Shown here one piece after another: positions 1,178 through 22,084 of a stretch of DNA of 34,557 nucleotides. The first letter of the stretch is position 1. Each line of letters starts with the position of its first letter. The position numbers and the translations under genes were made by a program. Location of the stretch: contig JAYWEM010000154.1 of the NCBI GenBank assembly GCA_043779265.1, forward strand, positions 1 through 34,557, written 5' to 3'. Below the pieces are notes generated by a model. The model searched no databases. It was not told where the DNA came from and saw only the letters and a list, made by a program, of their open reading frames with translations. The stretch is from a bacterium (GTDB lineage Bacteria > Eisenbacteria > RBG-16-71-46).

Positions 1178-3607
1178 TCACCGCCCGGCGGGCCCCGGTC
1201 GGGGCAATCGGACCTCGACCTCATGGACGCGGCCGGCCGTCCCCGGAGGAAGCAGGTCACCCTTCAACCGCTTCCCATCGAGCCACACACCCGGCTCGGC
1301 CCCGCCCACCTTGGCCCGGATCCGGTAGGTGGCCCCGCGGAACCGGCGGGTCATCTCGAAGCCCTTCCAATGAGGTGGGATGCAGGGCCGGATCCGCAGA
1401 CCCTCCCACTCCGGGCGCACGCCGAGGATCCACTCGGTCTGCACCCGGAACAGCCAGGCGGCCGAACCCGTGTACCAGGTCCACCCGCCGCGACCGTAGT
1501 ACGGCGAATCGGGCCCCTCGACGTTGCCGGGCGAGACGTAGGGCTCGACCGTGTAGAAGTCGGGGTCGGCGCCTCGGACGACCGGACAGAACGAGTGCCA
1601 CAGTCGCCACGCCTGCTCGGCGCGGCCGAGCTTGCACTCCATCTGCACCGCCCAGACACCGGCATGCGTGTACAGCCCGCCGTTCTCACGGCTGCCGGGC
1701 GCATAACGAGTCAGGTACCCGATGCTGGCATCCGGGACGCGATAGGCCGGCGCCAGCAGCAGCGGACCGTAGTCGCCGTACAAGTGGCGCTCCAGCGCAC
1801 GCAACAGCTTCGCGCGCCTCGCGGGCGGCGCCACGTCGTGCAGTACGGCCCACGTCTGCGCGTTGAGGAAGATGCGCCCGTCGCGATTGTGCTTGGAGCC
1901 GATGACCGAGCCATCGTCTCGGGTCGCGCGCTGATACCAGTCGCCGTCCCAGAAGTGGCGATTGACGTCGCGGCGGATGCGCGCCGCCCAGGCCGTGTAG
2001 CGTCGGATCACCGCGCGATCGGGCTTGGCTCGACGCTCCTCCAACTCGACCCACTGATCGAGGATGCCGACGAGGAAGTGCGCCAGCCACACACTCTCCG
2101 ACTTGCCCTTGTCGCCGATCGCCGAAAGGCCATCGTTCCAATCGCCCGCACCCATTCGAGGGACGCCGCGCTTGGACATGCGCTGGGCGAACGAATCGAT
2201 CGCGCGGCGACAGTGCTCGTACACGGTTCCACTGCCTGCGTGGCGCTTGCCGCCCGGTGCCAGGAACGGCTCGCGCGCCTCGAGAAACGAGAGGTCGCCG
2301 GTCTCCCTCAGATGCTGGAGCGTCACGAAGGGAAGCCAGAGCAGATCGTCGTTGAGGGGCTTCTGGATCCCCTCCTCGGTCAGCGGATGCCACCAGTGGT
2401 AGGTCGTGCCGTCGGCGAACTGATGCCGCGCATGCAACCGGATCTGTGCCGCCGTGTGCTCGGAAGCCAAGGGCAGGAACACCTGACTGTCCTGGAGCTG
2501 ATCGCGGTAACCGTAGGCTCCGCCCATCTGGAAGTAGCCGGTTCGCCCCCACAGTCGGCTCGAGATCGCCTGGTACTTGAACCAGGTATTCGTGAGCAGG
2601 TCGAACGCCGGGTCGGGCGTCTTCACCTCGAGCGGCGACAAGAGGTCATTCCAATGGCGGTCGACCGAGCGGCGCAGCCGCTCGACTCCGGCCGGCGTGC
2701 GGATCGCGCGGGCGATGCGCAGCGCCTCGGATCGCGTGTGGGCCAGGCCGAGCGTGAACGAGACCTCGCGCGTCTCCCCCGGCGCGAGCCGCACCTTCAC
2801 GTGCACCGCGCCGATGGCATCCTGCCACTTGCCCTCGCCCTTCGACAGGCGAACACCGCGGCCGCGAGGCGAGCGCAACGCCGCCGGGTCGGAGAGCGAG
2901 CCCATGCGCCCGAGGAATCGCTCCTTGTCACTCTCCCATGAGGCGAGCGGCTGGCTCGCCGCCAACACGCCGACATGCGGCCACTCGACGTTCCACGGCG
3001 TTCCGACGCCATGCTCGGCGATCGTGTTGAGCCGCTTGGTCACGAGCATCGCCTGCGCCGGAGCCACCACCTCGGTCTCGAGGAACAGCTTGTGGAACTC
3101 GCGATGCGTGTCGGGCGAGGGTCCGCAGTTCCACTCGAGGTAGGTCACGAGATCCAACTGGCGCGCACGCTTCGTGCGATTCGTCAGCCGGACACGCCAC
3201 ACCTCGCACGCGCTGCCGGGCGGGACGAACACCATCCACTCGCTCGCGATCCCGTCGGTCTCGCCCTCGAACACCGAGTACCCGATGCCGTGACGACAAC
3301 GGAAGTCACGCGTCTCCGCCTTCACCGGCTGGTGCGACAGGGACCACAACACACCACTGTCCGCATCACGGCAGTAGAGGTAGCGCCCCCACTCGTCGCG
3401 CACCAGGTCCTGCTCCCAGCGCGTCAGCCGGTTGAGCGAGGCGTGCGTGCGCCAGCTGTAGCCCGAGCCCGCCTGCGTGAGCGCGACACCGTAGTCGCCG
3501 GTGCAGATCACATTCGACCACGGTCTCGGCGTGTCGGGCCGCGTGATGATGTACTCGCGGCCATCTTCGGAGAAGTGACCGTACTTCGTGGGGAACAACG
3601 CGGCCAT
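1178..3607 (-). CDS. GH94 glycoside phosphorylase (cellobiose/chitobiose phosphorylase-sized, 809 aa), cytoplasmic
   Basis: Motifs YGHFSEDGREYIITRPDTPRPWSNVI, GGAYGYRDQLQD, GDWNDGL (catalytic Asp), ESVWL, RENGGLYTH and WYTGSAAW. No signal peptide. ATG at 3607 is preceded by GAGG. Confidence 0.92.
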   Translation of the reverse strand: MAALFPTKYGHFSEDGREYIITRPDTPRPWSNVICTGDYGVALTQAGSGYSWRTHASLNRLTRWEQDLVRDEWGRYLYCRDADSGVLWSLSHQPVKAETRDFRCRHGIGYSVFEGETDGIASEWMVFVPPGSACEVWRVRLTNRTKRARQLDLVTYLEWNCGPSPDTHREFHKLFLETEVVAPAQAMLVTKRLNTIAEHGVGTPWNVEWPHVGVLAASQPLASWESDKERFLGRMGSLSDPAALRSPRGRGVRLSKGEGKWQDAIGAVHVKVRLAPGETREVSFTLGLAHTRSEALRIARAIRTPAGVERLRRSVDRHWNDLLSPLEVKTPDPAFDLLTNTWFKYQAISSRLWGRTGYFQMGGAYGYRDQLQDSQVFLPLASEHTAAQIRLHARHQFADGTTYHWWHPLTEEGIQKPLNDDLLWLPFVTLQHLRETGDLSFLEAREPFLAPGGKRHAGSGTVYEHCRRAIDSFAQRMSKRGVPRMGAGDWNDGLSAIGDKGKSESVWLAHFLVGILDQWVELEERRAKPDRAVIRRYTAWAARIRRDVNRHFWDGDWYQRATRDDGSVIGSKHNRDGRIFLNAQTWAVLHDVAPPARRAKLLRALERHLYGDYGPLLLAPAYRVPDASIGYLTRYAPGSRENGGLYTHAGVWAVQMECKLGRAEQAWRLWHSFCPVVRGADPDFYTVEPYVSPGNVEGPDSPYYGRGGWTWYTGSAAWLFRVQTEWILGVRPEWEGLRIRPCIPPHWKGFEMTRRFRGATYRIRAKVGGAEPGVWLDGKRLKGDLLPPGTAGRVHEVEVRLPRPGPAGR

Positions 3608-3673
3608 CCTGTGCCTCACCTGGAACGCGCGACGCGCGCACCCAGCGGGGATGCGCGCGCCTCGAATGGGAAC

Positions 3674-5254
3674 TCAGTCGCCCAGATGCACGAGCCGCGT
3701 GACCTGCGTCTCGCCCTGGGCCTCCAATCGTGCGAAGTAGATACCCCCACGCCAACCGGCGGTGGAGATGGTGATCGAGTGCGCTCCCGCTTCGCGGCGG
3801 CCCCGCACGGCGATGGCCTGCTCGCGGCCCTGCACGTCGAACACCGACAGCCTCACGTCGCCGCCACGCGGCAGTCGGAAGTGGAGCGTCGTCTGGCCTC
3901 GGGCCGGATTGGGTTCCGGCGCGGACAACCACAGTGCGCCCTCGCGCTCGGGCTCGACACCCAGCAGCGAGAAGTCGATGAAGTTGGCGCGCTGCAGTCC
4001 CGTCTGGATGTACGGGCTCTGCATGAACCGGTTCCAGATCGACTCGGTGCGATGGTTCTCGATCATCATCAGGATCGGGCCCTGATCGATGCCGACGACA
4101 TCGTTGGACCACCAGGCGAACGACGGCTTGAACGCATCCACGAATCCGTACGGGCCCCACAGGAGCGAGCGGTAGACGCGCCACAGATGGTGCATCACCG
4201 CGTAGGACTCATCCGGCGTGAACACGACCGACGACAGCGCCGCGGTCGGCACCATCGTGCCCTCGTCGTTCTGCGCCGGAGGCGCGCCACGTGCGAGATA
4301 ACCGCCCGGGCCGGGGTAGTCGGACGCCGTGATGCCCCACAGGCTGTCGGTGTAGAGGAACGAGGGCGGCGCGGTCTGGATCGAATAGGCCCGCTGCGCG
4401 AGCGTCGCGCGGCGCGAGTTCTCGAAGTAGTCGAGCCCCTTGGTTTGCATGTAGGGGTCGCGCTGGTCACGGAAGTCGATCCAGCAGTGACTGTATTGAT
4501 GGCCGAACAGCGGTGGGAAGGTGACGAACGAGTAGCCGTAGAACGTCTGCCACTGATAGCCGGAGATCCAGTAGTTCCACGCATTGCTCGGCACGGGGTA
4601 GGTGGGCGAGCCGAGCGCCATCAGGTAGAGGATCATGGCCTCGTTGTAGCCCTGCCAGAGCCCGAAGCCGCTGAACCCCGTTCCCGGCTTCCAGCCCATG
4701 CGGATCCCGACCGAGCCATTGCGCATGAAGTTCCAGTCGACGCGGCGGAAGAGCGAGTCGGCCAGATCGCGGATCGCCACCTCCTGCGAGTCCGCCTGAT
4801 CGAAGTAGAGCCCCACATCCAACACGCCCGCCATCAGCAGTGCGGTGTCGATGGTGGAGAGCTCGGAGTCCCAGGCGCGTGTCGCCGTGGCGGGATCGAG
4901 GAAGTGATAGAAGAGCCCTTTGTAGCCGATCATCCCTGCCGCCGCCGTGCCCTGAACGCCCCACCAGTAGGTGCGAAGCTGTTTGAGCACACGGGCGCGG
5001 CCCTGCTCGCGCGTGATGTAGCCGCGATCGATGCCGATGCAGGTGGCGCTGAAGCCGAAGCCCTGTGATGCGATGCTCGCCATCGACCACGACGCCGTGC
5101 GATCGTCGATGAGACCCGTGACGGGGTGCGACTCATTCCAGAAGAAGTCGAAGGCGCTGCGTTGCAGTGTGTCGAGCAGCGCCGGCGTGCTGATCGCCTG
5201 CGCCGGCATCGAAGTCACGCAAAGAAGCGCGAGTGCCGCGAGAAGTCGTCGCAT
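3674..5254 (-). CDS. GH144-like ('glucoamylase family') endo-beta-1,2-glucanase with signal peptide and T9SS/FlgD-like CTD (526 aa)
   Basis: Motifs LQRSAFDFFW, ELSTIDTALL, GYNEAMILY, PLFGHQYSH, YFENSRRATL, WGITASD, YGFVDAF and GIDQGP. C-terminus PEPNP...VFDVQGR...GIYFARL. Signal peptide MRRLLAALALLCVTSMPAQA. Confidence 0.88.
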   Translation of the reverse strand: MRRLLAALALLCVTSMPAQAISTPALLDTLQRSAFDFFWNESHPVTGLIDDRTASWSMASIASQGFGFSATCIGIDRGYITREQGRARVLKQLRTYWWGVQGTAAAGMIGYKGLFYHFLDPATATRAWDSELSTIDTALLMAGVLDVGLYFDQADSQEVAIRDLADSLFRRVDWNFMRNGSVGIRMGWKPGTGFSGFGLWQGYNEAMILYLMALGSPTYPVPSNAWNYWISGYQWQTFYGYSFVTFPPLFGHQYSHCWIDFRDQRDPYMQTKGLDYFENSRRATLAQRAYSIQTAPPSFLYTDSLWGITASDYPGPGGYLARGAPPAQNDEGTMVPTAALSSVVFTPDESYAVMHHLWRVYRSLLWGPYGFVDAFKPSFAWWSNDVVGIDQGPILMMIENHRTESIWNRFMQSPYIQTGLQRANFIDFSLLGVEPEREGALWLSAPEPNPARGQTTLHFRLPRGGDVRLSVFDVQGREQAIAVRGRREAGAHSITISTAGWRGGIYFARLEAQGETQVTRLVHLGD

Positions 5255-5294: not shown

Positions 5295-6317
5295 TCAGAA
5301 CGAGACGCCCACCGAGAGGCGGTGCGCCTGCCCGAGCCGACCGTGATCGGCCCACGCATAGTCACAATGATAGCGGTATTCCTCGACCTGGCCGCGAATC
5401 CCCGCTCCGAGCGTGGCCCCCATCTCCGAATCCCTCAGGAAGAGGTTCTGCCAGCCGGCCCGCAGCGCCAGTAGCTCGCGGAATGCCCATTCGCCGCCCA
5501 GACTGACGCTCTCCTCGCCGTCGCCGGGGTGATGGGCGTCCAGTGCGAGCTGCATGGCGTGATCGCGGTTGAATCGATGCGGCCAGCCGAGTCCGACGCG
5601 GAACAGCGTCGGCAGCGCGAATGCATCGGTGTGGCGCAGGCCGGGCAGGGTGCCGTTATCGCCGTAGCGGGTCGGATCGTTGTCGTAGAGGATGCGCAGG
5701 TCGCGCCCGTCGTAGCGTGCCCGCGTGCCGAAGTTGGAGAGGCTCGATCCGATGTGCAGGCCATTCTCCGAGGTGCGGTACAGCGTGCCGACGTTGAGCG
5801 CCATCGTGCCGGCCGAGCTGTTCCAGATGGTCTCCTGGAGGTACGTCAGCTGCACCCCGACCGAGAAGCGATCGGTGATGAAGCGCCCGGCTCCCAGCGA
5901 CAATGCGATGTCGGAGACCTGGTAGCGCTCGCCGGTGCCGAGCGGGAAATCGACCGTGCGCACGAGGATGTCGCCCGAGTTCAGTGACGTGATCGAGGCG
6001 TAGCCATTGCCCCATTTTCCGACTGGCATCGCCAAGATGACGTGCTCGAAGCCGATGTCGGCGAGCCACTCGCTGTGCGAGAACTGCACGGCACGGCCCT
6101 CGACCGCGGCGATCGCGGCCGGGTTGTAGAACACGCCGCCCAATCCCTGCGAGGCGGTCACGCCGGCGTTGCCCATGGCCGCGAGCCTCGCATCGGGCTC
6201 GAGCAACAGGAACTGCCCGAGCGTCGTGCCGGTCTTGCTCTGGGCGGCCGCAGCCCCGGCCAGCGGCAGCAGTCCGAGCACGACGGAGGCAGCGACGAGG
6301 AAGCGCCGGGCCCTCAT
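5295..6317 (-). CDS. PorV/PorQ-family outer-membrane beta-barrel (340 aa)
   Basis: N-terminal KTGTTLGQFLLLEPDARLAAMGNA...FYNPAAIA motif, amphipathic beta strands, terminal Phe (HRLSVGVSF). Its ATG overlaps the upstream TGA (ATGA at 6314-6317). Confidence 0.85.
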   Translation of the reverse strand: MRARRFLVAASVVLGLLPLAGAAAAQSKTGTTLGQFLLLEPDARLAAMGNAGVTASQGLGGVFYNPAAIAAVEGRAVQFSHSEWLADIGFEHVILAMPVGKWGNGYASITSLNSGDILVRTVDFPLGTGERYQVSDIALSLGAGRFITDRFSVGVQLTYLQETIWNSSAGTMALNVGTLYRTSENGLHIGSSLSNFGTRARYDGRDLRILYDNDPTRYGDNGTLPGLRHTDAFALPTLFRVGLGWPHRFNRDHAMQLALDAHHPGDGEESVSLGGEWAFRELLALRAGWQNLFLRDSEMGATLGAGIRGQVEEYRYHCDYAWADHGRLGQAHRLSVGVSF

Positions 6318-9300
6318 TTGATCACCGCGAACTTGCCCACGTGCGTCCCGACGCCCGGGGCGTCGACGTGGAAGAGATAGAGACCGGGCGCGATGTCGAG
6401 GTTGTCCTCGGTGCGCAGGTCCCACGCGACGAAGCCCTCGAGCGAGCCCGCCTGCCGCAACTGCCGCACGAGGTTGCCACGCACCGTGTAGATGCGGATC
6501 GCGGCGCCGACCGGGATGTTGCGGAACTCCAGGCGCCGGTCGCCTCGCCCCGAGACCGCGAAGCGCGAAGGCTCGAAGCTCGCCGCGCCGACATACGGGT
6601 TGGGGACGACGTAGGGCTCTTGCGACCAGTCTGCCTGCACGCGTGACGGATCGATCCGCTGGCCGCCCACGGTGAACATCAACTCGTCGCCGTCGCCGTA
6701 GGGCTCGTCGATCCGCAAGTCGAACACATCGCCCTGCCGAGGCGGCACGATCGCGCCGCGTGTCCCCTGTCCCAGCGTGTCGAGCTGGAAGCGCCACGTG
6801 GACTGCGGCGTGCCGGGCGCGCTGTCGAGGTAGGTCACCATGTCGATGTACTCGTCGGCGCGGCTCAGCGTGTTGTTGTTGTCGAGATCACGGAAGCGGA
6901 AGTCCATCTGCCGCGGCCCGCTGGGCGTCTGCGCGAACACCTTGAACTTGGCGGGCCGGGCCGGGATCGGGAACAGCGCGAGGCCGGTGTCCTGGATCGT
7001 GTCGGAGAACTCGATGCGGATGTCATCGGGGAAGCCCACGCGACGCAGGTTGATCGGCTGCACCGGCTGATACACACTCTGGACGCGCGTGTTGGTGGGC
7101 GAGCCGGGCGTGAATCCACTTGCCGCGGCATTCACCTGGATGCGTTGGATCGTGCTGACGATGGGCAGAAGTCCAAGCCCCACCGGCCCATCGCCAACCC
7201 CATTCAGGTCGCGGCCGCTGTTGAAGCCCACCTCCCCGCTCGTGCTATCGAGAAGCGAGTAGCTCGTCGCGCGGATGCTGTCGACCGACGGCGCGGCGAA
7301 GCGGATCTTCATGATGTGGCCATCGGGTACGAGGTTCGAGTTGACGACACGCACCTGCGCCGTTCCCACTCCATCACCGAGCAGATTCGAGACCGCGCCT
7401 GCCGTGGCGCCGACGAAGCCCGGCGCCCGCGGGTTCGGCCGCACCTGCACGACGTTCGAGGGCAGGATGGTGCCTCCTCGTGGCGTCCGCGAAACGGCGA
7501 TCGCGTTCTCGGACGGATAGAACGAGGTGGAGTCGGTGCCGGTGTCGTGGCCATAGTCGTAGGCGCAGACCGCGTAGTAGTAATTCTGCCCGTTCACCAC
7601 CGTCGTGTCGGTCCACGTGTGGGTGATGCCGGAGTCCTCACCCAAGTAGTACGCCACACCCTCGATGACCTTGCGCGAGAAGCCGCGGATCCCATTGACC
7701 CGGTCGAACTGCGCGTTGGGCCGACCATTGCCGATCAGGCCCGCGCCGGTGCCCGTGGTGATGACGCGCACGTCGCGGAACTCGGGATCGGTCGCACGAT
7801 AGATCCGGTAGCCCTCGAAGTCGTTCAGGTTGGAAACCGGATCGATCCCCTTCTCGGCGGCGTCGTCCCACGACAGTCGAACGAAGCCGTCCCCCGTCTC
7901 GGCGGTCACGGTGGGCAGCGGCGGCGGCACCGCGAACTGGTAGTTGGCATCGTAGATCTGCTGCACCGTCCGCACCGTGTTGCGCAGTTCCGGCAGGTCG
8001 CCGCCATAGGCGAGTGCCAAGCTGAAGCGCTCGGTCTTGCCGGCCGCGAGCCGGAACGGGCCCGATGCGAACAGGAAGCCGATGTTGAAGTTGGAGGCGA
8101 GCGCCGAGTCGAAGCGCGCCGCCGGATTGGGCGCGGTGAACTTGTCGAACAGTCGCTGCGGCCAGTTGCCCGAGTCGGTGTAGAACAGGATGCCGTCCGT
8201 CGTGGGGTCGCGGTTGCCGATGCCCGCGCGGATGCGGTTCATCTTGAAGCCGGTCAGCCCGATCTGATCGGACTCATTGAGATCGGTGCGGTCGAAGTTG
8301 GGCTCGCCGGCGGTGGGGATGCCGTCGCCCTCCCCCGCGTCGAAGGTCCCCGCGACTCCATCGACGCCGACATCATGGAACTCGGGGTTCCAATCGAGAT
8401 CCTCGTCGCCCGTCCACCAGATCCCGGTTCGATGTGCGGGGCGATCCTGGATGCGACCGTACTTGGCGACGAACTTGGCCGTGTCGTAGTTCGCAGCGAG
8501 GTAGGAGACGATGTTGTCCGGCCCCGAGATGAGCACGCCGGGACCGCCGTCTCGCTGTTCGTCGACGATGCCGTCGAGGTCATCGTCGACCCCGTTCGAG
8601 GAGTTGCCCGGCGTCTCCAGATACGCGTAACCGAGATAGCCGGTGGGACTGCAGTTGCCCGCCAGGTCGCGGCCGTGGCCGTAGGTGTCCCACGTGTAGA
8701 CCAGGTTCAGTCCCGAGGAGCGGTCGAAGAACGCATTGTCGTCGTCGGACTCGAAGATGCCGTCACACGAGAACGCGGAACCACCGACGCCGGAGTCCAT
8801 GTAGAGCCCGAAGATGATGTTGTCATTGTAATCCGTCGTGCTCTCGTTGGTGATGTCGTAGTGCCAGAAGATCACATTGCCGGCTTGCGGATTGGCCCAC
8901 TGGAATCCACGCACCTCGATGCGCAGACCGAGCCCATTGCGCGTCGGGTCGCGCGAGTCCGGCTCGTAGTCGAACCCGTCATAGAAGTCATCGTCCATGA
9001 CGGTATAGCTCTCCTGATCGGCGGCGGGCCGCTTGCCGAAGTAGCCGTTCCAGCTGCCGCCCCATCCCGGATCGTCGGCGTCGAGCAGCCGATCCGGCCA
9101 CGTGGCGGGCCACGTTCGCGGGTCATGGCTCATCGCCGGGGAACGCCCGCGGTTGATTCGCGGATCGGCCTGGAAGTAGCCCGGGCGCGGCTCGAAACGC
9201 ATCGGGCGCTTGAAGAACGGGCTGATCTGCTGCCGCTCGCGAAAGCCCGTCTCCATGATGTAGGTGTCCTCGCTGCGACCGTTCTCACGGATGCGCGCGA

Positions 9301-9625
9301 GCACGAACGGCGTGATGCCGTCGCTGTAGTTCATGCCCGAGCCCTTGGGGACCTCGGCCGAGTGGAACACCGAGAGGTCCACGGTGGCCGGGTCGGGCGG
9401 GTAGTCGCCGCCCATGCCGAAGTTCCAGAACCGCGTGCGGATGTTGGCGGCATCGTGCGTGCCGAAACGCTCGGCATCAATGCGGCCGCGCTGTTCGGGC
9501 GGCACCGGTGTGATGACCTGCGCGGCGACAGCGAAGGGCTGCGTCAGCATCAGCCAAGCGGCGAGCGCGGGGATCCATCCGCCGCGGCGCGGACTGCACG
9601 ATGCGTTCAAGCGGCGTGAGTTCAT
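6314..9625 (-). CDS. Large secreted protein (1103 aa) with acidic Ca-binding-like motifs, an Fn3-like domain and a T9SS-like CTD
   Basis: ATG at 9625 overlaps the receptor stop (ATGA), with a GGGGAG RBS. Signal peptide ends AVAA. Motifs NGVDDDLDGIVDE and VRLSWD...FEGYRIYR. CTD VVPNPY...IRIYTVRGNLVR...WDL...APGLYLFHV...GKFAVIK. Confidence 0.85.
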   Translation of the reverse strand: MNSRRLNASCSPRRGGWIPALAAWLMLTQPFAVAAQVITPVPPEQRGRIDAERFGTHDAANIRTRFWNFGMGGDYPPDPATVDLSVFHSAEVPKGSGMNYSDGITPFVLARIRENGRSEDTYIMETGFRERQQISPFFKRPMRFEPRPGYFQADPRINRGRSPAMSHDPRTWPATWPDRLLDADDPGWGGSWNGYFGKRPAADQESYTVMDDDFYDGFDYEPDSRDPTRNGLGLRIEVRGFQWANPQAGNVIFWHYDITNESTTDYNDNIIFGLYMDSGVGGSAFSCDGIFESDDDNAFFDRSSGLNLVYTWDTYGHGRDLAGNCSPTGYLGYAYLETPGNSSNGVDDDLDGIVDEQRDGGPGVLISGPDNIVSYLAANYDTAKFVAKYGRIQDRPAHRTGIWWTGDEDLDWNPEFHDVGVDGVAGTFDAGEGDGIPTAGEPNFDRTDLNESDQIGLTGFKMNRIRAGIGNRDPTTDGILFYTDSGNWPQRLFDKFTAPNPAARFDSALASNFNIGFLFASGPFRLAAGKTERFSLALAYGGDLPELRNTVRTVQQIYDANYQFAVPPPLPTVTAETGDGFVRLSWDDAAEKGIDPVSNLNDFEGYRIYRATDPEFRDVRVITTGTGAGLIGNGRPNAQFDRVNGIRGFSRKVIEGVAYYLGEDSGITHTWTDTTVVNGQNYYYAVCAYDYGHDTGTDSTSFYPSENAIAVSRTPRGGTILPSNVVQVRPNPRAPGFVGATAGAVSNLLGDGVGTAQVRVVNSNLVPDGHIMKIRFAAPSVDSIRATSYSLLDSTSGEVGFNSGRDLNGVGDGPVGLGLLPIVSTIQRIQVNAAASGFTPGSPTNTRVQSVYQPVQPINLRRVGFPDDIRIEFSDTIQDTGLALFPIPARPAKFKVFAQTPSGPRQMDFRFRDLDNNNTLSRADEYIDMVTYLDSAPGTPQSTWRFQLDTLGQGTRGAIVPPRQGDVFDLRIDEPYGDGDELMFTVGGQRIDPSRVQADWSQEPYVVPNPYVGAASFEPSRFAVSGRGDRRLEFRNIPVGAAIRIYTVRGNLVRQLRQAGSLEGFVAWDLRTEDNLDIAPGLYLFHVDAPGVGTHVGKFAVIK

Positions 9626-12264
9626 CGACTCCCCCCCAGCGACAGACCGATCTCGATCCGTCTCGGAGCGAGGAAGCGCGTCGGGTTCTCCAGCGTGGCC
9701 CGCTCCGAGAGTCCGAGCACGGAGGAATAGTAAGGACTGCCCGAGTTGTTGAACACGAACCCATTGAAGAAGCGGGCATCGAGCGCGTTGTAGATGCGGG
9801 CGAACCAGCGAGCGCGCTGACCGAACAGCGGCCGGGTCCGCTCGGCCCGCAGGTCGAGCTGCGCGCCGAAGGGCTTGCGACTCGTGTTGGTGATGTCGTA
9901 GCCGGCCGAGGCGTCGCTGACGCTCAAGGGCGTGAACGGCTGCCCGCTGCCCGAGCGCAGCACCGCACTCACGATGTACGCCTCGGGCTTGGCGAGTGTG
10001 AGCGTCAGGTTGAGCGTGTGGCGCTGATCCCAGTTGAACGGGAGCTGCCGCGGCCGCGGGTCCTGTCCCGCCTCGGCTCGCGTCGCCGTCTCGCGCGGGT
10101 CGCTCGAGTTGCCCTGCGCGCGCTGCCACGTGTAGTCGAGCGACGAACTGAGCAGACCACGCGAGCGTTGGTCCAGGGCGATAGTGAAGCCGACGACGTC
10201 GCCGAAGTCGACGTTCGCCCACCTCGCGTATTCGGCCGAGTTGTAGGTCGTCACGAACTCCACGCCGAGCAGGTCGCGGATGTCCTTGTAGAACGTGCTG
10301 ACATCCACGCCGAACCACTCGTTGACCGCATGCTTGTAGCCGAACTGGTACTGCACCGTGCGCTCGGGCCGGATGTCGGGGTTGGCGATGACGCCCTTGT
10401 TCAGCCCGGACTCGCCCGCCGGGATGTCGGCGAGCGCGGCGTAGTCGGCGTTGGCGAAGATCTGGCCCAGTTCGGGCATCTGGTAGAAGTGCCCGTATGC
10501 GAAGAACACCGCGGCATCCGCGGTGACCGGATAGGAGACGCCGAGTCGCGGCGACAGATTCAGCTTGCGCGACGTCGGCACGGGAACCGAGAGCGGCGCG
10601 CCGGCGATCGAGTTGGCGGGGTTCGCAAGATCGCTCGGCAGGCTCGAGCGTGCATCGAAATGGTCGAGCCGGAAGCCCGCGCGCACGTTGACGTCGCCCA
10701 ACTCGACTTCCGCCTGGGCGAAACCGGCGCCCTGCACGGGCTCGAACGATGGCCGCTCTTGGAGGAATCGAGTCAGCGACGTACCGCCCGGGATGAGCAG
10801 AGCGTCCGAACCGAAATCGATCCGCGGCCACTGCATCTCGGCACCGAACTTGTATTGGACGTCGCGCGTCACCTGATCGACGAACGAACCCTTGGCGATC
10901 CACGTGTCGGAGTTCTGCGTGAACCGCCCGAGATCGACTCCCTGCAGGAAGAACGCGCCAAGCCCGAAGCCATCGTCCGTCCGCAGGGCCAGCGCCTCGT
11001 CGTAGCGCGCGTCGTACAGATCGTCGTAGGCGCGATCGGTGTAGTGCAGCACGTTCTGCCGCACGCTCAGGTTGGCGAAGCGCGTGCTGCTGAACGTGTG
11101 CGAGACATCGAGTCCATGCACGAGCGAGAACTGCTTCTGTCGCCGCATGCCCTCCGGCAGGAAGCGGAACGCCCAGTCCTGCCGCCTCGTCTGCGAACCA
11201 TTGGCGATCACTTGATAGCTGAACTCCCAGTCGCGGCTGGCACGATGGGTGAGCTTGGTGATGCCCGACCACTCCCGCGACGTGCCGAGCGCGACCTCGC
11301 GGCCATCGCCCGAAGGGCGATAGACATCCGCCTCGAGCCCGCTGGAATCCGTCGGGGCGAACAGGCTCGTGGCGCGCACGTAGTCATCGAAGTGCGCATA
11401 GCGGCCGCTCACCAGATACGTCGTCCGCGCCAGGGGCAGCGGCCCACTGAGGCTGGCCTGATAGCCCTGGATCGCGCCCGGGCGGATGCTCGCTGGCATC
11501 AGGCGATCGCTACCGCCGTCCCATACGAAGCTCCCGTGCGAGACCTCCGCGTCCCACTGGAGCTTGTCGCTGCCGCGGCGCAGGATGGCGTTGACGACTC
11601 CGCTCATCGCCTGCCCGTACTCCGCATCGAAAGTGCCGCTGATGACCTGCACCTCCTCGAGCAGCGAGCGATCGAGCTTGAGCGTCGAGGCGTTATTGAA
11701 GGCGTTGTTCACGCTCACGCCATCCACCTGGAACTGCACCTCGCCGAGTCGTCCACCGCGGAAGTGTCCGTCCACGACGCCCGCCTGGAGATTCACGATC
11801 TCCTGCAGTTCCTGGACCGGCAGCGCCTGGATCTCCTCTCGGCTGACCGAGGCGACGTTGCTGGTGCGGTTCACCTCGACCACGGGCCGCCGGGCGCTCA
11901 CCACGATCTCCTGCATCTGCACCGGTGCTTCGGCGAGCGCGAGGTCCAGCCGCGTGGTCTGGTCGGCGCTCACGACGACGTCCTGCGTCGCCACGCTGCG
12001 ATAGCCGAGGAGGCTCGCACGAACGGTGTACGTGCCCGCCGGGATCTGGACGATGGTGAATCGCCCGGTCTCATCACTGGCAGCGCCGAGCGGCGCCCCG
12101 ATGACGATGACGTTGACGCCGATGAGCGGCTGCTTGCGCTCATCCACGACGCGGCCCGAGATCTTGCCCGTCGTGCCTGCCCAACTCGTGGCCGCGACCA
12201 GCAAACCGGCCACGACTGCCCATCCTCGCAGCGCGGCTCGCAACTCGACTCGGATCACGCCCAC
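9622..12264 (-). CDS. TonB-dependent receptor with N-terminal carboxypeptidase-regulatory-like domain (about 880 aa)
   Basis: Motifs GTTGKISGRVVDE, plug domain HFRGGR...VDGVSVN...GTFDAEYGQAMSGVVN, SPRLGVSYPV, ANPDIRPERT and C-terminal PRRIEIGLSL. The start is GTG at 12264 or 12258. Confidence 0.92.
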   Translation of the reverse strand: MGVIRVELRAALRGWAVVAGLLVAATSWAGTTGKISGRVVDERKQPLIGVNVIVIGAPLGAASDETGRFTIVQIPAGTYTVRASLLGYRSVATQDVVVSADQTTRLDLALAEAPVQMQEIVVSARRPVVEVNRTSNVASVSREEIQALPVQELQEIVNLQAGVVDGHFRGGRLGEVQFQVDGVSVNNAFNNASTLKLDRSLLEEVQVISGTFDAEYGQAMSGVVNAILRRGSDKLQWDAEVSHGSFVWDGGSDRLMPASIRPGAIQGYQASLSGPLPLARTTYLVSGRYAHFDDYVRATSLFAPTDSSGLEADVYRPSGDGREVALGTSREWSGITKLTHRASRDWEFSYQVIANGSQTRRQDWAFRFLPEGMRRQKQFSLVHGLDVSHTFSSTRFANLSVRQNVLHYTDRAYDDLYDARYDEALALRTDDGFGLGAFFLQGVDLGRFTQNSDTWIAKGSFVDQVTRDVQYKFGAEMQWPRIDFGSDALLIPGGTSLTRFLQERPSFEPVQGAGFAQAEVELGDVNVRAGFRLDHFDARSSLPSDLANPANSIAGAPLSVPVPTSRKLNLSPRLGVSYPVTADAAVFFAYGHFYQMPELGQIFANADYAALADIPAGESGLNKGVIANPDIRPERTVQYQFGYKHAVNEWFGVDVSTFYKDIRDLLGVEFVTTYNSAEYARWANVDFGDVVGFTIALDQRSRGLLSSSLDYTWQRAQGNSSDPRETATRAEAGQDPRPRQLPFNWDQRHTLNLTLTLAKPEAYIVSAVLRSGSGQPFTPLSVSDASAGYDITNTSRKPFGAQLDLRAERTRPLFGQRARWFARIYNALDARFFNGFVFNNSGSPYYSSVLGLSERATLENPTRFLAPRRIEIGLSLGGSR

Positions 12265-12278
12265 TCCCCTCGCCGGAG

Positions 12279-12313
12279 GGGTCGGGCGGAGCGAACAGGC
12301 ACTCCGCCGACCC
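12279..12313. other. Intergenic GC-rich stem-loop between the CBM gene and the TonB receptor gene
   Basis: GGGTCGGGCGGAG / CTCCGCCGACCC: 12 bp stem with one bulge, 10-nt loop, no U-tract. Confidence 0.55.
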
Positions 12314-12330
12314 GCCGGATGGTGCTCACA

Positions 12331-14232
12331 TCAATCGATGAACATCACCTTGCCGGCCAACGAGGCCCGCAGGGCGCCCGTGTTCGGATCCGCCAGTCGG
12401 AGGCGATAGAAGTAGAGCCCATCGCCGAGCCCGGCGCGCGTCAGCAGTGCGGTCTGCGTCCCCGCCTGACGGACTCCCAGCGACCGCGAGGACACCTGAC
12501 GGCCCTGCAGGTCATACAACTCGAGCCGCACGTCGGCGTCGACCGGCATCGCGAATCGCAGGGTCGAAGCGACGCGCGTCGGGTTCGGATACTGACCGAG
12601 CATCCGGAATCCGGTCGCGACCGAGCCGCCACCATCGCCGACATCGGTGACGAACGAGTTGGGATCCATGTACGCCACCACCGGGCAGCAGGTGTTGTCG
12701 TACTCGGCCTGCCACCATGTCCGCGTGCCGTAGCTGTCGGTGAACGGCGTGAACGAGTCGGCGTCATGGTGCGTGATGCTGAACCACAGCGCGCCATCAC
12801 CACGGCCGACCGGGTAGCTCAGTTTGGGGAGCACGAGCTTCAGCTCGGCCTGATAGCCGTTGTCCGCCTGCAGCCCGAGCGTATCCACGGTCGTGCCGAC
12901 GTTCATCGACATGGCGACCTCGGCCCCGCCCGAGTCGCGCAGCGCTGGCAGGTACTCCTCGAGCTGCGCCTGGCCGGTCGGACCGACCCGCAGCACGAGG
13001 CGGCGCGTCTGCAGCGTCTTGTCGACGGGACCGCGCTTGGTGCGCTCGTAGATACCCACCGTGAAGCCGTCCCAGCGATCGAACGCATTCACGGACTGCA
13101 CCACGAGGTCGCGAACATCGAAGCCGAGGTAGAGCGAGTCCTCGCGGAAGAAGTACTTGACCGTGGCGTCGCCCGGATCGATGACCGCAGCCTCGCCCCC
13201 GTTGACGGTGGCCTGGTACTGCCAGGAGCGCCACTTGCCCATGCCCGGATAGCTCTGACGCAATGCGTCATCGCCGAAGCGGATGTCGATGCTCGGAGCG
13301 CGCTGCCACACCGCGTCGGTCAGACGACCATCGATCACGGGAGCCGGGAAGCCGCCGCCGTTCGGCACGATCAGATCCGCGCCGATCACCGGCACCGGAC
13401 CCGAGGCCACGGTGATGTCGGGACGGCTCTGGATGCGCACCTGATGATAGCCGAGCGAGTTGCCCCACGGACCCTGCAGCCAGGTGCGATAGGCGGTGAA
13501 GCGGAAGATGTTCTGCGGCCAATACCAGTCGCAGTCGTAGATCGAGAGGTTCCACTCGACGATGTCGCCCTCGGGCCGCGCCAGGTCATAGCCGAGCGCC
13601 GACACCTTGAACTTCATCTCGACCGTGTAGCGCTGGTCGATCACCGCATCACTGTTGCTGAGGCCGTTCACGACCGTGACGGCATCCCAGTTCTGGATCT
13701 GCTCGGGCGAGCGCGGCGTGCCGGGCGGGAAGTTGCTCCACACGCCGATGAACCCGGGCGAGATACCCGGCGCGCTCGGCTGGATACCGGCATCGGGATA
13801 CCACCACGAGTAGAGATGTTCCTGCGGGCCCGCCGGAGCGCCGCCATTGCGATGGTCCTTGATCGCCATCAGGAATCCGTCGAAGCGATTGAAGTCGATC
13901 GAGCCGCCGACCGAGCTGTCGCGCACCGTCGCGCCGAGCCAGATCTCGTCCCCCACCGTCAGCAGGCGGATCGTGGCGCGGACGCTGTCGCGCGGCAGGC
14001 CACCCGACTCGATCTTCCAGCCGCTGCCGGGCTCCCCGGAATCGAAGTTGAAGTTGATCTGGATCGACTCGGCCAGAGCCCACGCAGGTTCGCTCAGCGC
14101 ACCATCCAAGGTGAGCGCGGCGCCATTGGTGGTGCGGGCCCAGATGACGTCCTTGCGAACGGGCTGCGCGTCGGCCGCGATCGTGAGCGTCATGGCCGCG
14201 ACGAGTGCGAGTGCGGCGATCGGGAACTTCAT
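12331..14232 (-). CDS. Secreted glycan-binding protein with two CBM9/DOMON-like repeats plus T9SS/FlgD-like CTD (633 aa)
   Basis: ATG at 14232 with GGAGG RBS and a signal peptide. Repeats TLDGALSEPAW / VIDGRLTDAVW and IWLGATVRD / LYLGFDVRD. CTD QYPNP...LYDLQGRQV...GLYFYRL. Confidence 0.8.
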   Translation of the reverse strand: MKFPIAALALVAAMTLTIAADAQPVRKDVIWARTTNGAALTLDGALSEPAWALAESIQINFNFDSGEPGSGWKIESGGLPRDSVRATIRLLTVGDEIWLGATVRDSSVGGSIDFNRFDGFLMAIKDHRNGGAPAGPQEHLYSWWYPDAGIQPSAPGISPGFIGVWSNFPPGTPRSPEQIQNWDAVTVVNGLSNSDAVIDQRYTVEMKFKVSALGYDLARPEGDIVEWNLSIYDCDWYWPQNIFRFTAYRTWLQGPWGNSLGYHQVRIQSRPDITVASGPVPVIGADLIVPNGGGFPAPVIDGRLTDAVWQRAPSIDIRFGDDALRQSYPGMGKWRSWQYQATVNGGEAAVIDPGDATVKYFFREDSLYLGFDVRDLVVQSVNAFDRWDGFTVGIYERTKRGPVDKTLQTRRLVLRVGPTGQAQLEEYLPALRDSGGAEVAMSMNVGTTVDTLGLQADNGYQAELKLVLPKLSYPVGRGDGALWFSITHHDADSFTPFTDSYGTRTWWQAEYDNTCCPVVAYMDPNSFVTDVGDGGGSVATGFRMLGQYPNPTRVASTLRFAMPVDADVRLELYDLQGRQVSSRSLGVRQAGTQTALLTRAGLGDGLYFYRLRLADPNTGALRASLAGKVMFID

Positions 14233-14380: not shown

Positions 14381-14415
14381 TGTAAACGGTTACATCCCGC
14401 ATCTGACACTGTCAA
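14381..14415 (-). promoter_or_regulatory. Putative promoter (TTGACA at 14415-14410) with LacI-type operator TGTAACCGTTTACA (14394-14381)
   Basis: Near-perfect 14-bp CG-centred palindrome covering the -10 position, 17 nt after a perfect -35. Confidence 0.8.
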
Positions 14416-14447: not shown

Positions 14448-17400
14448 TCAGCGTTGGAACGAAATGGTCGCAGGAACTCGCGCCAGATGCACGCGACCGG
14501 CCTCGTCCGCCTGTACCACCCGGCCATCCACGCGCACCTCACGCGCCCGCTCGACACCCGGGTCGCAGACGAAAACGCCCCCGCGCGGCAGGGCATCGAG
14601 CCCGCGAACCCGGACCTCGAACCCGGCCCCAGTGGCCTCGGTCTCGGTCTCGAGTCGTCCCCACCGGGTCGGCAGGCCATGAAGCCGGAGCAATCCGCCT
14701 CGAGCGAACCAGGCGGGCGAGACGCCGGCGCCGATCACGAGCCGGTCCGTGGCATCGTCCTCGAAGGCCACCAGGTCGAGCACCGAGCGCACGAAGTCCG
14801 AACCGACCCATGTGTGCGGCAGGTCGCCGATGAATCGCTGCGCGACGCTGTCGCGATGGACGACCTCGGCCCATTGATTCCACTGTGGCGGATCGCGGCG
14901 GGCCAGGAACCACTCGGTCAGGGCGAGCGCTCGCTCGCGCCAACCGAGTCGGGCCATCGCCCCTATCACGCGCACCTCGTAGGGCGTGAACGCCTCCCAG
15001 GGCTCGGTGCCGATCCGGCGACGCTCGAAGAACGCCCAATAGCGCTCGAAGGTCGCGCGCAGTGCCTCGTCGCGGATGACTCCGGCGGCGGCGGCGGGCG
15101 TGAGCGCGATCGTGGTCGAAGTGGCGTCGAAGTCGCCGAGATCGGCGCAACCGGGGACGTAGTCGATCGCATGCACGCGCATGGCCGCCTCGATCGATGC
15201 GCCAAGGTCCCGCGAGAAGGTGTCGAGCACGGCGGTGTAGCGCGCTTCGGTCGCGGGGTCTCGGAATGCGCTCGCCAGTTCGATGACATCGCGGAACCCG
15301 CGCAGCGCGAACAGATCATCCCAATAGGAGTGCATCGGCTTGGCCGAATAGCCCTCGTGGCTGATCGAGGGCGGCAGCAGTCCGAAGAAGTGGGCACGCT
15401 CGGGGGTGCGCCACTCCGCGGTGCGACGCTGCAGCCGCAGCGAGTCGAGGTAGTGCGCCACGCCGCGCGCCGTCGGCCAGAACGGCTCCACGCCCGCGTG
15501 ATCACCCGTGCGCCGCAGGTACTCCGCGAGCAGGAAGAGATACTGCCCGTTCGAATCATGCTCGGGCACCGGGTCGCTGCCGCGATGATCGACGCAACAT
15601 GGCACCTTGCCGTCGGCATAGAGGTACGGCGTGAACCACCGGATGTAGTCGAGCACGTCCTCGCCGTGGCCGAGCATCAACAGGGCCGAGCACGACAGCG
15701 AGCCGTCTCGGATCCACGAACGCTCGTAGGAGCGCGAGCCCGGCTGGATGGCGGCTCCGTCCCGATTGATCAGCAAGTAGGCGAGTTGGCTCCGCACGAC
15801 ACTGGCCAGCTCCGCCCCATCCCCGGGGATCTCGAGCGTCAGTCGATCCAACCGCTCGCGCCACAACGCCCGCACCGCCGACTCGTGGGCGGCGAACTCA
15901 TCGGCGCCGATCCGGTCGGAAAGTTCGGGAGCGCGATCGAGCGGCACGCGCACCAGCACTTCGCGCTCGCCACCGGCGGGCAACTCCAGCTCGTAGAGCA
16001 ACGCGCCGCTCGCGAGCGCATCGGCATCCGTGAGTGTGAGGCGATCGGGCAACTTCGCCGCGCGCCGCGAGCCGAGCGCCGCGACCACATCGCCCGTCGC
16101 CGACGTGCGCGCCACGAAACCATCAGCCGGCGTCAGGCCGATGACGCCTCGAACGCCATCGGCCAGCACGAGGTCGCCTTGACGCTCGAGCCGGCCGATC
16201 CGCGCGACTCCGCCCGGGGCATTCAGGAACTGGGCCGGCGGGTTCACCTGGAACGGCCGCAATGCGAGCGCGAGCGTCACGCGCTGCGAGTGCGGCAGCG
16301 GATTCCGCACCACGTAGCGCGCGAGGATCGAACTGCGGCCGGGGGCCCCCTCGGCGAACACCGAGGTCGTCAGCTCGAACTTCGGATGACGCCATCGCAC
16401 CCAGGGCATCGGAAGGTCGCCGTCTCTCAGCCCGAGATCGCGCTCGACCTCCGCCCAGGTCACGACCGAGCGATCGTCCAACACGATGAACGGCTCGAGC
16501 GACCACTCCCCCTTGCCCACCTCGAACGCACCGTCCTCGCTGAACAGCGACTCCTCGCGGGCACGATCGACGCCGACGATGGTCCAGCGCGATCGCTCGC
16601 CCAGCATCGCGCGCGGCAGCTCTCCGCGTCGTCGATGCGCGCCGTGCTCGCGCCAGATCGAATCGGGCGAAGCACCCCAAGCGAGCGAGCGGAACTCCAA
16701 CTCCATCAGCCGCGCGTTCCCGGCCGAGCGCGGGGCGCTCACGCGCACGAAGCGCGCTTCGGTCTCGGGCGAGCGGAACAGGTCGAGCCCGAGGTCGGAT
16801 GTGCGGGTCGCGCGATACGTCCGCCACGCGCGCCCGTCATCGGAGAGCTCGATCGAGAGGTCGAGACCGCGAGGCGGCACGCCACCGGCCGCGCCCGCGC
16901 GCGCCGAGCTCCACGTGAGTGCCAGCCCGCCGAACTCGCGGCGAGAACCCAAGTCGAGCGTGAGCGGGCCCTTGGGTCTCCAGCCGGTCGCCGCGTCCCC
17001 ATCCACTGCGGTACCCCCAGCCGCACTGCCGACGACGCGAGCGATCGGCGGCCACGGCGGCGGCGGCGGCAGGGAATCGAGCGTCAGCTCATCGAACCAC
17101 ACGCTGCCCGAGCCGCCCTGCCCCGCCGTGATGGCGAACTCGAGCGCCGCGAAGCGCTGCAGTTCGCCGGGCAACGGGCCCCACGCGAAGGAGACGTGCC
17201 GCTTCTTGATCCGGATCGTCTCCCACTCGCCGTCGAACATGTGGTCGCGCTGGACACTCCACCACACGTTCTCGCCGCTCGCATCCACCACTTTGAACTC
17301 GACGTGATTCGGCTTGGCGAGCGCGCGCATGCGGAACGTGAACTCGTAGTTCGCCGGCACGTCGGCCGAGATCGCCTTGCGGAGCACGGCATAGCCGCCG

Positions 17401-17591
17401 CCCTTCTGGAAATCGAAGTCCATGCGCACCGCGCTGCCTCGGTCGGACTTCTCGAGCGCCAGTGTCGCCAGCACGCCGCTCGCGGGCTGGGCCTGCCAGC
17501 CCTCCAGCGAATCGAAGGCGTCAAGCGTGCGGGCGGTGGCGGGCGTGCCGGACCACACAGCGAGAACCAGCAACAGGAGCGCCTTCCGCAT
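14448..17591 (-). CDS. Secreted multidomain glycosidase-like protein: N-terminal CBM-like domain, F5/8-type C (discoidin) domain and C-terminal (alpha/alpha)6 barrel (1047 aa)
   Basis: Signal peptide MRKALLLLVLAVWSGTPATA. Discoidin motifs AVDGDAATGW...LDLG...LSDDGRAW...ARFVRV. Six-hairpin glycosidase motifs YERSWIRDGS, EHDSNGQ and GDLPHTW. No CTD. Confidence 0.8.
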   Translation of the reverse strand: MRKALLLLVLAVWSGTPATARTLDAFDSLEGWQAQPASGVLATLALEKSDRGSAVRMDFDFQKGGGYAVLRKAISADVPANYEFTFRMRALAKPNHVEFKVVDASGENVWWSVQRDHMFDGEWETIRIKKRHVSFAWGPLPGELQRFAALEFAITAGQGGSGSVWFDELTLDSLPPPPPWPPIARVVGSAAGGTAVDGDAATGWRPKGPLTLDLGSRREFGGLALTWSSARAGAAGGVPPRGLDLSIELSDDGRAWRTYRATRTSDLGLDLFRSPETEARFVRVSAPRSAGNARLMELEFRSLAWGASPDSIWREHGAHRRRGELPRAMLGERSRWTIVGVDRAREESLFSEDGAFEVGKGEWSLEPFIVLDDRSVVTWAEVERDLGLRDGDLPMPWVRWRHPKFELTTSVFAEGAPGRSSILARYVVRNPLPHSQRVTLALALRPFQVNPPAQFLNAPGGVARIGRLERQGDLVLADGVRGVIGLTPADGFVARTSATGDVVAALGSRRAAKLPDRLTLTDADALASGALLYELELPAGGEREVLVRVPLDRAPELSDRIGADEFAAHESAVRALWRERLDRLTLEIPGDGAELASVVRSQLAYLLINRDGAAIQPGSRSYERSWIRDGSLSCSALLMLGHGEDVLDYIRWFTPYLYADGKVPCCVDHRGSDPVPEHDSNGQYLFLLAEYLRRTGDHAGVEPFWPTARGVAHYLDSLRLQRRTAEWRTPERAHFFGLLPPSISHEGYSAKPMHSYWDDLFALRGFRDVIELASAFRDPATEARYTAVLDTFSRDLGASIEAAMRVHAIDYVPGCADLGDFDATSTTIALTPAAAAGVIRDEALRATFERYWAFFERRRIGTEPWEAFTPYEVRVIGAMARLGWRERALALTEWFLARRDPPQWNQWAEVVHRDSVAQRFIGDLPHTWVGSDFVRSVLDLVAFEDDATDRLVIGAGVSPAWFARGGLLRLHGLPTRWGRLETETEATGAGFEVRVRGLDALPRGGVFVCDPGVERAREVRVDGRVVQADEAGRVHLARVPATISFQR

Positions 17592-17593
17592 GC

Positions 17594-18412
17594 TCAATCC
17601 TTCAGGCTGCCCGCGAGGATGCCGCGGGTGTAGAACCGCTGGAGCGCGAGGAACAAGACGAGCACGGGCATCACGGTGAGCACGGCTCCCGCCATCATCA
17701 ACTCGGTGTCCTGCACGTGCTCGCCCACCAGGTTGGCGAGTGCCACCGGCAGCGTGTAGCGCGAGCTGTCCGAAAGGATGATGAGCGGCCACATGAAGTC
17801 ATTCCACGATGCGAGGAACGTGAAAAGGCCGAGCGTCACCAGCACCGGCGCGAGAATGGGGAGCACGAGCGTCCAGAAGATGCGGCCCTCGCTCGCACCA
17901 TCGATGCGCGCGGCGTCGATCAGATCGTCCGGGATCGCCATCGCGAACTGACGCACCAGGAAGATCCCGAAGATGCTGGCGAAACTCGGGAGCGCCACGC
18001 CCCACAACGTGTTCACCAGTCCCATCTGCTGCAGCAGCAGGAACAGCGGCAGCATGCCGACCTGCGCCGGGATGACGAGGGCTGCGACCAGCGCGCGGAA
18101 GAGGCCCTCACGACCCGGAAAGCGCAGCTTGGCGAACGCATAGCCCGCCATGGCGTTCAGGACGAGCCCGATCGTGGTGCCGAGCGTGGCGACGATCAGA
18201 CTGTTGCCGAAGTTGCGCGCCAGATCGAGACGGACGAAGAGCGCTCGGTAGTGTTCCAGCGTCGGCACCGCCGGCAGGAATCTAGGTGGCGCCTGATTGG
18301 CCTCCCCTGGCGCCATGAACGAGGCGGACAACATCCAGAGGAGCGGCGTCAGTGTCAGGATGGCGCCTGCGACCAGAGCCGCGTGCAGCAGGAGCGCGCG
18401 CGGGGCCCTCAT
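17594..18412 (-). CDS. Carbohydrate ABC transporter permease (MalG-like, 272 aa)
   Basis: EAA loop IPDDLIDAARIDGASE, plus GYAFAKLRFPGR and SWNDFMWPLI. ATGA overlap with the upstream gene. Confidence 0.95.
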   Translation of the reverse strand: MRAPRALLLHAALVAGAILTLTPLLWMLSASFMAPGEANQAPPRFLPAVPTLEHYRALFVRLDLARNFGNSLIVATLGTTIGLVLNAMAGYAFAKLRFPGREGLFRALVAALVIPAQVGMLPLFLLLQQMGLVNTLWGVALPSFASIFGIFLVRQFAMAIPDDLIDAARIDGASEGRIFWTLVLPILAPVLVTLGLFTFLASWNDFMWPLIILSDSSRYTLPVALANLVGEHVQDTELMMAGAVLTVMPVLVLFLALQRFYTRGILAGSLKD

Positions 18413-22063: not shown

Positions 22064-22084
22064 CGTGCGTCCTCGCGAGGGCGA

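Follow-up and report, generated by a model that had tools for sequence, protein, structure and literature searches.

A transporter, a T9SS-type secreted protein and a PorV/PorQ-family barrel form a recurrent three-gene cassette that may do without SusD in a likely beta-1,2-glucan locus of Eisenbacteria

How does a glycan locus deliver its substrate to a TonB-dependent transporter when it lacks SusD, the protein that acts as a lid on its transporter? The question is raised by a 34,557-nucleotide stretch of DNA, hereafter the window, which is the complete contig JAYWEM010000154.1 (C154) of an Eisenbacteria genome of lineage RBG-16-71-46 (assembly GCA_043779265.1; 3.43 Mb, 92% complete). Its glycan locus contains three consecutive minus-strand genes, encoding a transporter, a large secreted protein and an outer-membrane barrel, and an earlier model-made interpretation of the letters (the sequence-only reading) had proposed that the barrel holds the large protein at the surface as a substitute for SusD. 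The ATGA overlaps described for both junctions were confirmed at their exact positions (Table 1), as was the absence of a SusD-like gene, since SusD families matched none of the 23 open reading frames (ORFs) of the window. On balance, the analysis favours a reading in which the trio is the conserved outer-membrane core of a beta-1,2-glucan operon, where the large protein, held by the barrel, would capture glucan for the transporter instead of SusD.

The large protein belongs to an extensive family, with 1759 relatives among 8000 scored candidates, the best 120 of which were full length and at least 66% identical. A genome scan confirmed at least 460 relatives among at least 602 matched stretches, and records with related loci came from Eisenbacteria, Krumholzibacteria, Ignavibacteria, Calditrichota and Zhuqueibacter (KSB1); the closest labelled relative, at 84% identity, was a Candidatus Eisenbacteria genome. 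Gene order was read in the best 80 loci, where a transporter was found upstream in all 76 with room for it, a barrel downstream in 72/72, and both in 68/68, indicating that the order transporter-large protein-barrel is conserved. Four-base overlaps were present at 41 of 77 transporter-large protein junctions and at 46 of 69 large protein-barrel junctions. This count covers one orthologous cassette only, because the 80 loci are the closest relatives.

A family-level comparison was made with profiles of all three genes on five genomes of five lineages, whose match coordinates were crossed; partners were counted if encoded on the same strand, the large-protein relative no more than 4 kb and the barrel no more than 6.5 kb away from a transporter. 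Both partners were found for 37 of the 47 related transporters and for 36/60 large-protein matches, and 37 of the 86 barrels adjoined a large-protein match. The genomes had 15, 9, 6, 4 and 2 cassettes (some matches being split by frameshifts in one genome). The trio occurs in several orders: transporter-large-barrel, large-transporter-barrel and transporter-barrel-large. Four cassettes belong to the host genome, and in three of these the cassette runs across contig ends, which overlap by 98-99 bases.

The sequence-only reading had called the barrel a member of the PorV family, which held at the level of the combined PorV/PorQ family (NF033709, 175.4 bits, cut-off 90) and not at the level of either orthologue, the scores being 59 bits for PorV (NF033710, cut-off 250) and 74.7 bits for PorQ (NF033711, cut-off 220). 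In a profile search against the PDB the barrel matched PorV (E 3e-32) far ahead of the FadL-type TodX (E 2e-4), which rules out a FadL-type transporter and shows the barrel to be PorV-like, and no match to PorP/SprF was found for it. A quick tree of 75 barrels, from which one short row was dropped, placed 46 rows in one group (45 cassette barrels and one other; SH-aLRT 85), separate from a PorU-adjacent PorV clade with support of 98. A housekeeping porU-porV pair was likewise ruled out, as the porU-adjacent copy of the host lies on contig C127 and falls in that other clade.

The C-terminal domain (CTD) of the large protein resembles type IX secretion system (T9SS) sorting domains. The insertion noticed in it is genuine (residues 1008-1034, nucleotides 6604-6524), and its ~15 extra residues are missing from both ordinary CTDs of the locus. 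The predicted structure of residues 996-1103 matched the PorZ CTD 5m11 with Z 11.1, a root-mean-square deviation (rmsd) of 2.6, 92 aligned residues and 26% identity. The window CTD had no match to the type A profiles TIGR04183/PF18962 or to the type B profile CHU_C; among 103 CTDs of the family, four matched PF18962 weakly, ten matched CHU_C weakly and 34 matched FlgD_ig. Traits like those of type A cargo are present, namely a signal-like N-terminus and a predicted Ig-like fold of the C-terminal domain. In the host genome, seven C-termini scored at least 77 bits on the cassette CTD profile and every other at most 33, while a profile of ordinary CTDs, seeded without the special ones, recovered 157. 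A PorV-family gene lay within 4.5 kb of five of the seven special CTDs, versus 7 of the 157 ordinary ones, and five of these seven ordinary CTDs, including that of PorU, are directly upstream of a barrel. The cassette CTD is thus a distinct class, with a fold predicted to be that of the PorZ CTD.

Other PorV-family barrels are encoded directly behind ordinary-CTD cargo genes (C72:3258-8898, C138:12014-20997 and C97:3-1333; loci L104, L105 and L107). One barrel-adjoining cargo of this kind is 2684 aa long, and C-terminal extensions occur in some cases. The pairing of cargo and barrel therefore extends beyond the transporter cassette.

The signal-like N-terminal stretch of the large protein ends in AVAA/Q by inspection, and a loose lipobox pattern occurs in just 11 of 120 homologues, at unconserved positions; the protein thus has the signal and lacks the lipobox, as first described, and can be ruled out as a lipoprotein. 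Pfam gave no match to its 1103 residues, glycoside hydrolase (GH) families included, and NCBIfam contributed a single match, weak (E 0.003), to the C-terminus of PorZ. A PDB sequence search returned one weak Fn3 match (E 0.12), an ESM Atlas search returned unnamed clusters only, and Foldseek, run with the complete model, found Fn3 repeats at TM-scores below 0.2. An AlphaFold2 model built on 120 sequences (mean predicted local distance difference test, pLDDT, 77; predicted TM-score 0.72) predicted four domains: head, Fn3-like domain, stalk and CTD.

The head model matched the beta-supersandwich of glucoamylase, GH94, GH116 and galactose mutarotases, the best match in structure comparison being the glucoamylase N-domain 1lf6 (Z 18.4, rmsd 2.9, 234 aligned residues). 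Across the N-terminal supersandwiches of GH15, GH65, GH94 and GH116 enzymes and the galactose mutarotases, the matches had Z 12-18, rmsd 2.9-4.6 and 210-280 aligned residues. The head is only 6-14% identical to these proteins in sequence and carries ~250 residues of extra conserved loops, and in place of the catalytic (alpha/alpha)6 barrel of the enzymes the model shows only scattered short helices. The head is the most conserved region across phyla (window means 0.71-0.93, versus 0.58-0.72 for the stalk), and it has many acidic and aromatic residues that stay invariant among orthologues and not among paralogues, a pattern that fits a substrate-specific surface and would also be compatible with catalysis. 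The stalk, folded alone, reached a pLDDT of 95.5 and matched beta domains of FlgK/FlgL (Z 8-9, 84-90 aligned of 271 residues); no clear whole-domain structural match was found for it, which does not establish a new fold. Paralogues have the head, the Fn3-like domain and the special CTD in common, and the short ones lack the stalk.

The surroundings of the trio point to a sugar function, with two GH144-like proteins, a GH94 phosphorylase, a LacI regulator and a LacI-type palindrome in the same locus. The GH144-like protein at 3674-5254 matched the solved endo-beta-1,2-glucanase 5gzh with E 5e-54, and a similar palindrome was found upstream in 46 of 55 related loci versus none of 75 control segments. 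Because of this enzyme match, the content of the locus and the palindrome, the substrate is likely a beta-1,2-glucan. The gene for a CBM9-like protein with an ordinary CTD was present in every one of the 49 related loci that span 18 kb or more, and its product may be a fourth fixed member of the beta-glucan cassette. The locus resembles the beta-1,2-glucan cluster IALB_1177-1187 of Ignavibacterium album, described with two GH144 genes, a GH94 gene, an ATP-binding cassette (ABC) binding protein and a TonB-dependent transporter (PMC8861115); the likeness concerns the gene content as described. That paper deals with a GH35 enzyme and states that close homologues of the transporter lack biochemical evidence, and PorV goes unmentioned in the searched text of its supplement.

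In position and repetition, a close known counterpart is the SusC/SusD core of the polysaccharide utilisation loci (PULs) of Bacteroidia, in which a TonB-dependent transporter is also followed by a conserved partner gene and the unit is also repeated many times per genome beside varying carbohydrate-active enzymes (CAZymes) and regulators. Unlike SusC, the transporter scored far under the SusC/RagA cut-off (TIGR04056, 61.1 bits against 368) and matched over an N-terminal stretch only, so that it is not a SusC by NCBIfam. The partner also differs, as it is not a lipoprotein, is predicted to be mostly beta and has a CTD of T9SS type, and the unit includes the barrel as a third gene. The large protein lacks the traits of a SusD partner, with no Pfam match, no conserved lipobox and a beta-rich model rather than a helical one of the tetratricopeptide repeat type; its predicted secondary structure contains nothing SusD-like, and none of the 50 structural matches listed for its model was a SusD structure, an absence that by itself carries little weight. 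Profile searches point to a general scarcity of SusD: no SusD family was found in the host genome, SusD_RagB matched in just three of 30 carriers, and SusD-like_2 was found in none of 41 genomes of the phylum (the positive control matched). SusD is nevertheless not excluded from these lineages, since one SusCDE set has been reported in Melioribacter roseus (PMC3534657). The trio thus resembles the SusC/SusD core without being a member of it.

The partnership of the large protein with its barrel recalls the PorQ-PorZ and PorV-PorU pairs in the T9SS attachment complex of Porphyromonas gingivalis, in which PorU and PorZ retain their CTDs. Here too, a PorV/PorQ-family barrel goes with one large CTD protein, whose CTD has the predicted fold of the PorZ CTD. 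In contrast to those pairs, the cassette barrel falls under both orthologue cut-offs, its cargo differs from PorZ and PorU alike, a transporter goes with the pair, which occurs in up to 15 copies per genome, and the host has a separate PorU-PorV pair. PorQ has been proposed as the collector of PorZ from the translocon (PMC10947112). A second parallel is found in type B cargo co-encoded with a private PorP/SprF barrel, as in PG1035-PorP, SprB-SprF and Fjoh_3952-Fjoh_3951 (PMC9143113, PMC12618676), where the cargo is anchored at the surface through its uncleaved CTD, as is proposed for the cassette. Cognate barrels are reported to anchor such cargo in PorP-PG1035 and SprF-SprB (PMC9143113), and the cognate shuttles of Flavobacterium to be required in stoichiometric amounts (PMC12618676). 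The cassette differs from these systems in that its barrel belongs to the PorV/PorQ family and the window CTD lacks a CHU_C match; neither paper uses the word TonB in its main text.

The export apparatus that the favoured reading calls upon is partly in place. The host genome encodes an SprA-like protein, PorU (over the cut-off), about 12 PorV-family barrels and more than 150 CTD proteins, and the search for SprA was also positive in the carriers, SprA_N being found in 30/30. For Melioribacter and Ignavibacterium, PorV, SprA and Plug are the T9SS proteins reported in PMC11705866, which names no other. Type IX secretion may operate in these genomes without its canonical motor. In the favoured reading, the large protein would pass through Sec at the inner membrane and SprA at the outer membrane; its own barrel would then pick it up by the special CTD and retain it at the surface, where the head would offer the transporter the glucan fragments that the GH144 enzymes produce, replacing SusD. 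The large protein is very probably exported, and it is probably anchored by the barrel through its CTD. It is reasonably likely to work on behalf of the transporter, and a direct contact with it as a lid is suggested more tentatively, at slightly under an even chance. Translational coupling would be expected to yield near-equal amounts of the three proteins, a better fit to a stable anchor than to a shuttle that is recycled.

Several results weigh against this reading and are gathered here and in the next paragraph. GldM was detected in none of 31 genomes, GldN in none of 18 and GldK not in the one searched, with no positive control for GldM or GldN; with no GldK, GldM or GldN detected, the genes found do not account for the power source of export. 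SusD_RagB co-occurs over the cut-off in two of the 30 carrier genomes. In the five genomes, 22 of the 60 large-protein matches had neither partner nearby, and in the host two of the seven special CTDs (C58:47378-49795 and C151:4778-5842) lacked a barrel within 4.5 kb, although such proteins may share a barrel encoded elsewhere, by analogy with orphan type B cargo. The head model contains several low-confidence loops, and the support for the cassette-barrel group is only moderate and comes from a quick tree. The sequence-only reading had named co-evolution of the barrel with the adjacent CTD as a check, and no signal specific to that pair emerged. In a mirror-tree comparison of 32 cassettes all four parts tracked one another (rho 0.59-0.84), yet the partial rho was 0.27 for barrel and CTD versus 0.34 for barrel and head, and 0.18 for transporter and head versus 0.23 for transporter and CTD. 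As there is no domain-specific excess, shared inheritance explains the co-variation, and after the partial test a Mantel correlation between barrel and CTD (rho 0.67, 35 cassettes) was no longer accepted as a sign of binding.

The setting of the other cassettes has to be weighed as well, and a scan of 58 of the 105 ORFs flanking paralogous cassettes gave a divided picture. In the sub-clade of the window, 7/7 cassettes lay beside a CAZyme, carbohydrate-binding module (CBM), LacI or sugar-binding gene, with GH13, GH5, GH10, GH67, GH144-like and CBM20 among the sugar-related neighbours, whereas outside it 0/7 had sugar genes in the scanned flanks (one of these seven was placed by similarity and not by the tree). 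Three of the four cassettes of the host lie among housekeeping genes such as those for glutamate dehydrogenase, phosphofructokinase, methylpurine glycosylase and GWxTD proteins. The glycan setting first described therefore holds for the window and its sub-clade and not for the cassette family as a whole, which is a general module with one branch that forms the core of sugar loci. These housekeeping settings could suggest that the three genes serve outer-membrane assembly in general, with the large protein acting on the transporter as a cap, stabiliser or assembly aid whatever the substrate, and that the sugar link is secondary; the closest tracking was indeed that of the two barrels (rho 0.84, partial 0.56), and the supersandwich also matches the periplasmic domain of YidC (Z 12.1). 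Nevertheless, the head loops are near-invariant in the beta-glucan orthologues and divergent between paralogues, as substrate specificity predicts, and the sub-clade follows sugar loci without exception, so this explanation appears improbable. That the three genes are mere co-inherited neighbours without physical or functional link is far less probable still: operon neighbours co-vary by descent, which the partial mirror-tree test cannot distinguish, but the trio was rebuilt in several orders, and dozens of paralogous cassettes in five lineages retain it.

Other alternatives accept the link and change the role of the parts. The barrel-anchored large protein could be a surface glycan-binding protein or a new enzyme near the transporter, like SusE, SusF or SusG, rather than a docking lid. 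A head 66% identical to that of the window is fused to an ordinary type A CTD in locus L141 (4867-7164; G001:C1:267388-269040), with no transporter or barrel within 11 kb, a further point against a lid; many Asp, Glu, His and Trp residues of the head are invariant in orthologues, aldose 1-epimerases, which are catalytic with the same fold, are among the matches (Z 12-13), and transporter-head co-variation is not above background. Its gene, however, adjoins the transporter in most cassettes regardless of the enzymes nearby, unlike interchangeable accessory genes, and the model lacks the (alpha/alpha)6 catalytic barrel, which leaves this alternative unlikely, if less so than the others. It could also be supposed that the barrel is a dedicated but transient shuttle, after which PorU cleaves the large protein and leaves it surface-attached or released, as the presence of PorU, the predicted type A-like Ig fold of the CTD and the family members without an adjacent barrel would allow. 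A recycled shuttle, though, needs neither one barrel per cargo nor translational coupling, and a separate PorU-adjacent PorV already serves the ordinary CTD proteins, over 150 in number; a shuttle-only role is about as improbable as a general assembly unit.

The coordinates of the trio and of the other parts of the locus are collected in Table 1. Long opposite-strand or upstream-extended ORFs, such as 9601-14385 on the plus strand and a 1652-aa GTG frame, were treated as shadows of the high GC content.

Table 1. Positions in the window of the three-gene cassette, its junctions and domains, and the remaining glycan locus.
Feature	Position	Strand	Remarks
TonB-dependent transporter, 880 aa	9622..12264	-	GTG start; carboxypeptidase-regulatory-like domain, plug and barrel
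Large secreted protein, 1103 aa	6314..9625	-	No Pfam match; signal-like N-terminus; no lipobox
PorV/PorQ-family outer-membrane barrel, 340 aa	5295..6317	-	Cassette-associated group
ATGA stop/start overlap, transporter to large protein	9622..9625	-	
ATGA stop/start overlap, large protein to barrel	6314..6317	-	
Head domain, ~residues 45-560	7946..9493	-	Predicted galactose-mutarotase-like beta-supersandwich; long conserved acidic and aromatic loop insertions
Fn3-like domain, ~residues 566-725	7451..7930	-	Common to paralogues; weak sequence match
All-beta insert/stalk, residues 726-996	6638..7450	-	Missing from short paralogues
C-terminal T9SS-type sorting domain, separate class	6317..6640	-	Insertion at 6524-6604; predicted PorZ-CTD-like fold
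CBM9-like protein with ordinary type A CTD	12331..14232	-	First gene of the operon
TTGACA (14410-14415), then LacI-type palindrome (14381-14394)	14381..14415	-	Upstream of the operon
GH144-like protein (endo-beta-1,2-glucanase homologue) with ordinary type A CTD	3674..5254	-	
GH94 phosphorylase	1178..3619	-	
Remaining glycan locus: F5/8-domain protein, ABC permease, sugar-binding protein, second GH144-like enzyme, LacI regulator	14448..23134	-	

The window also encodes a secreted-looking protein (48-866, minus strand) without Pfam or NCBIfam matches and with a tail of the W-G-x-x-K-x-x-Y-R type; a separate LacI-type palindrome at 1093 belongs to it, and 36 of 80 related loci contain homologues. 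The segment 23559-33808 contains unrelated genes for an H+-pyrophosphatase, an alpha/beta hydrolase, a GH1 protein, two DinB-family proteins and an S-adenosylhomocysteine hydrolase. Among the paralogous cassettes, GWxTD-domain genes flank non-sugar ones (L168:4906-6264, L180:13810-15360 and L171:2302-3858; two by Pfam and one by resemblance), and PpiC-type rotamase genes are found directly upstream of the transporter in two sugar-linked ones (L174:17071-18795 and L176:4792-6597). In the L141 protein, nature supplies the head on its own, in a form suited to assays of binding or enzyme activity.

No paper describing the trio was found in a literature search that left most subscription journals and bioRxiv supplements outside its reach, and the cassette combines known principles in an architecture for which no published description was found. 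In its broadest form, the proposal is that the outer-membrane uptake machines of Eisenbacteria, Krumholzibacteria, Ignavibacteria, Calditrichota and KSB1 are three-part complexes, in which a T9SS-exported, barrel-tethered supersandwich protein would be the substrate-binding lid of the transporter, a second solution to the SusD problem; private PorV-family barrels would read an additional class of T9SS signal, and secretion might be independent of a GldKLMN motor. Taken as a whole, this proposal is possible rather than probable. The prediction of PULs and the models of carbon cycling depend on susC/susD pairs, so the sugar loci of these lineages, which are widespread in soil, sediment and wastewater, would be missed. 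The trio offers a new marker and defines a large, previously unannotated protein family. If the anchor model is true, type IX secretion would be linked directly to TonB-dependent uptake, cognate cargo-barrel pairing would be widened from PorP/SprF to PorV-family barrels, and secretion could be put to the test in genomes in which the searches detected no Gld motor.

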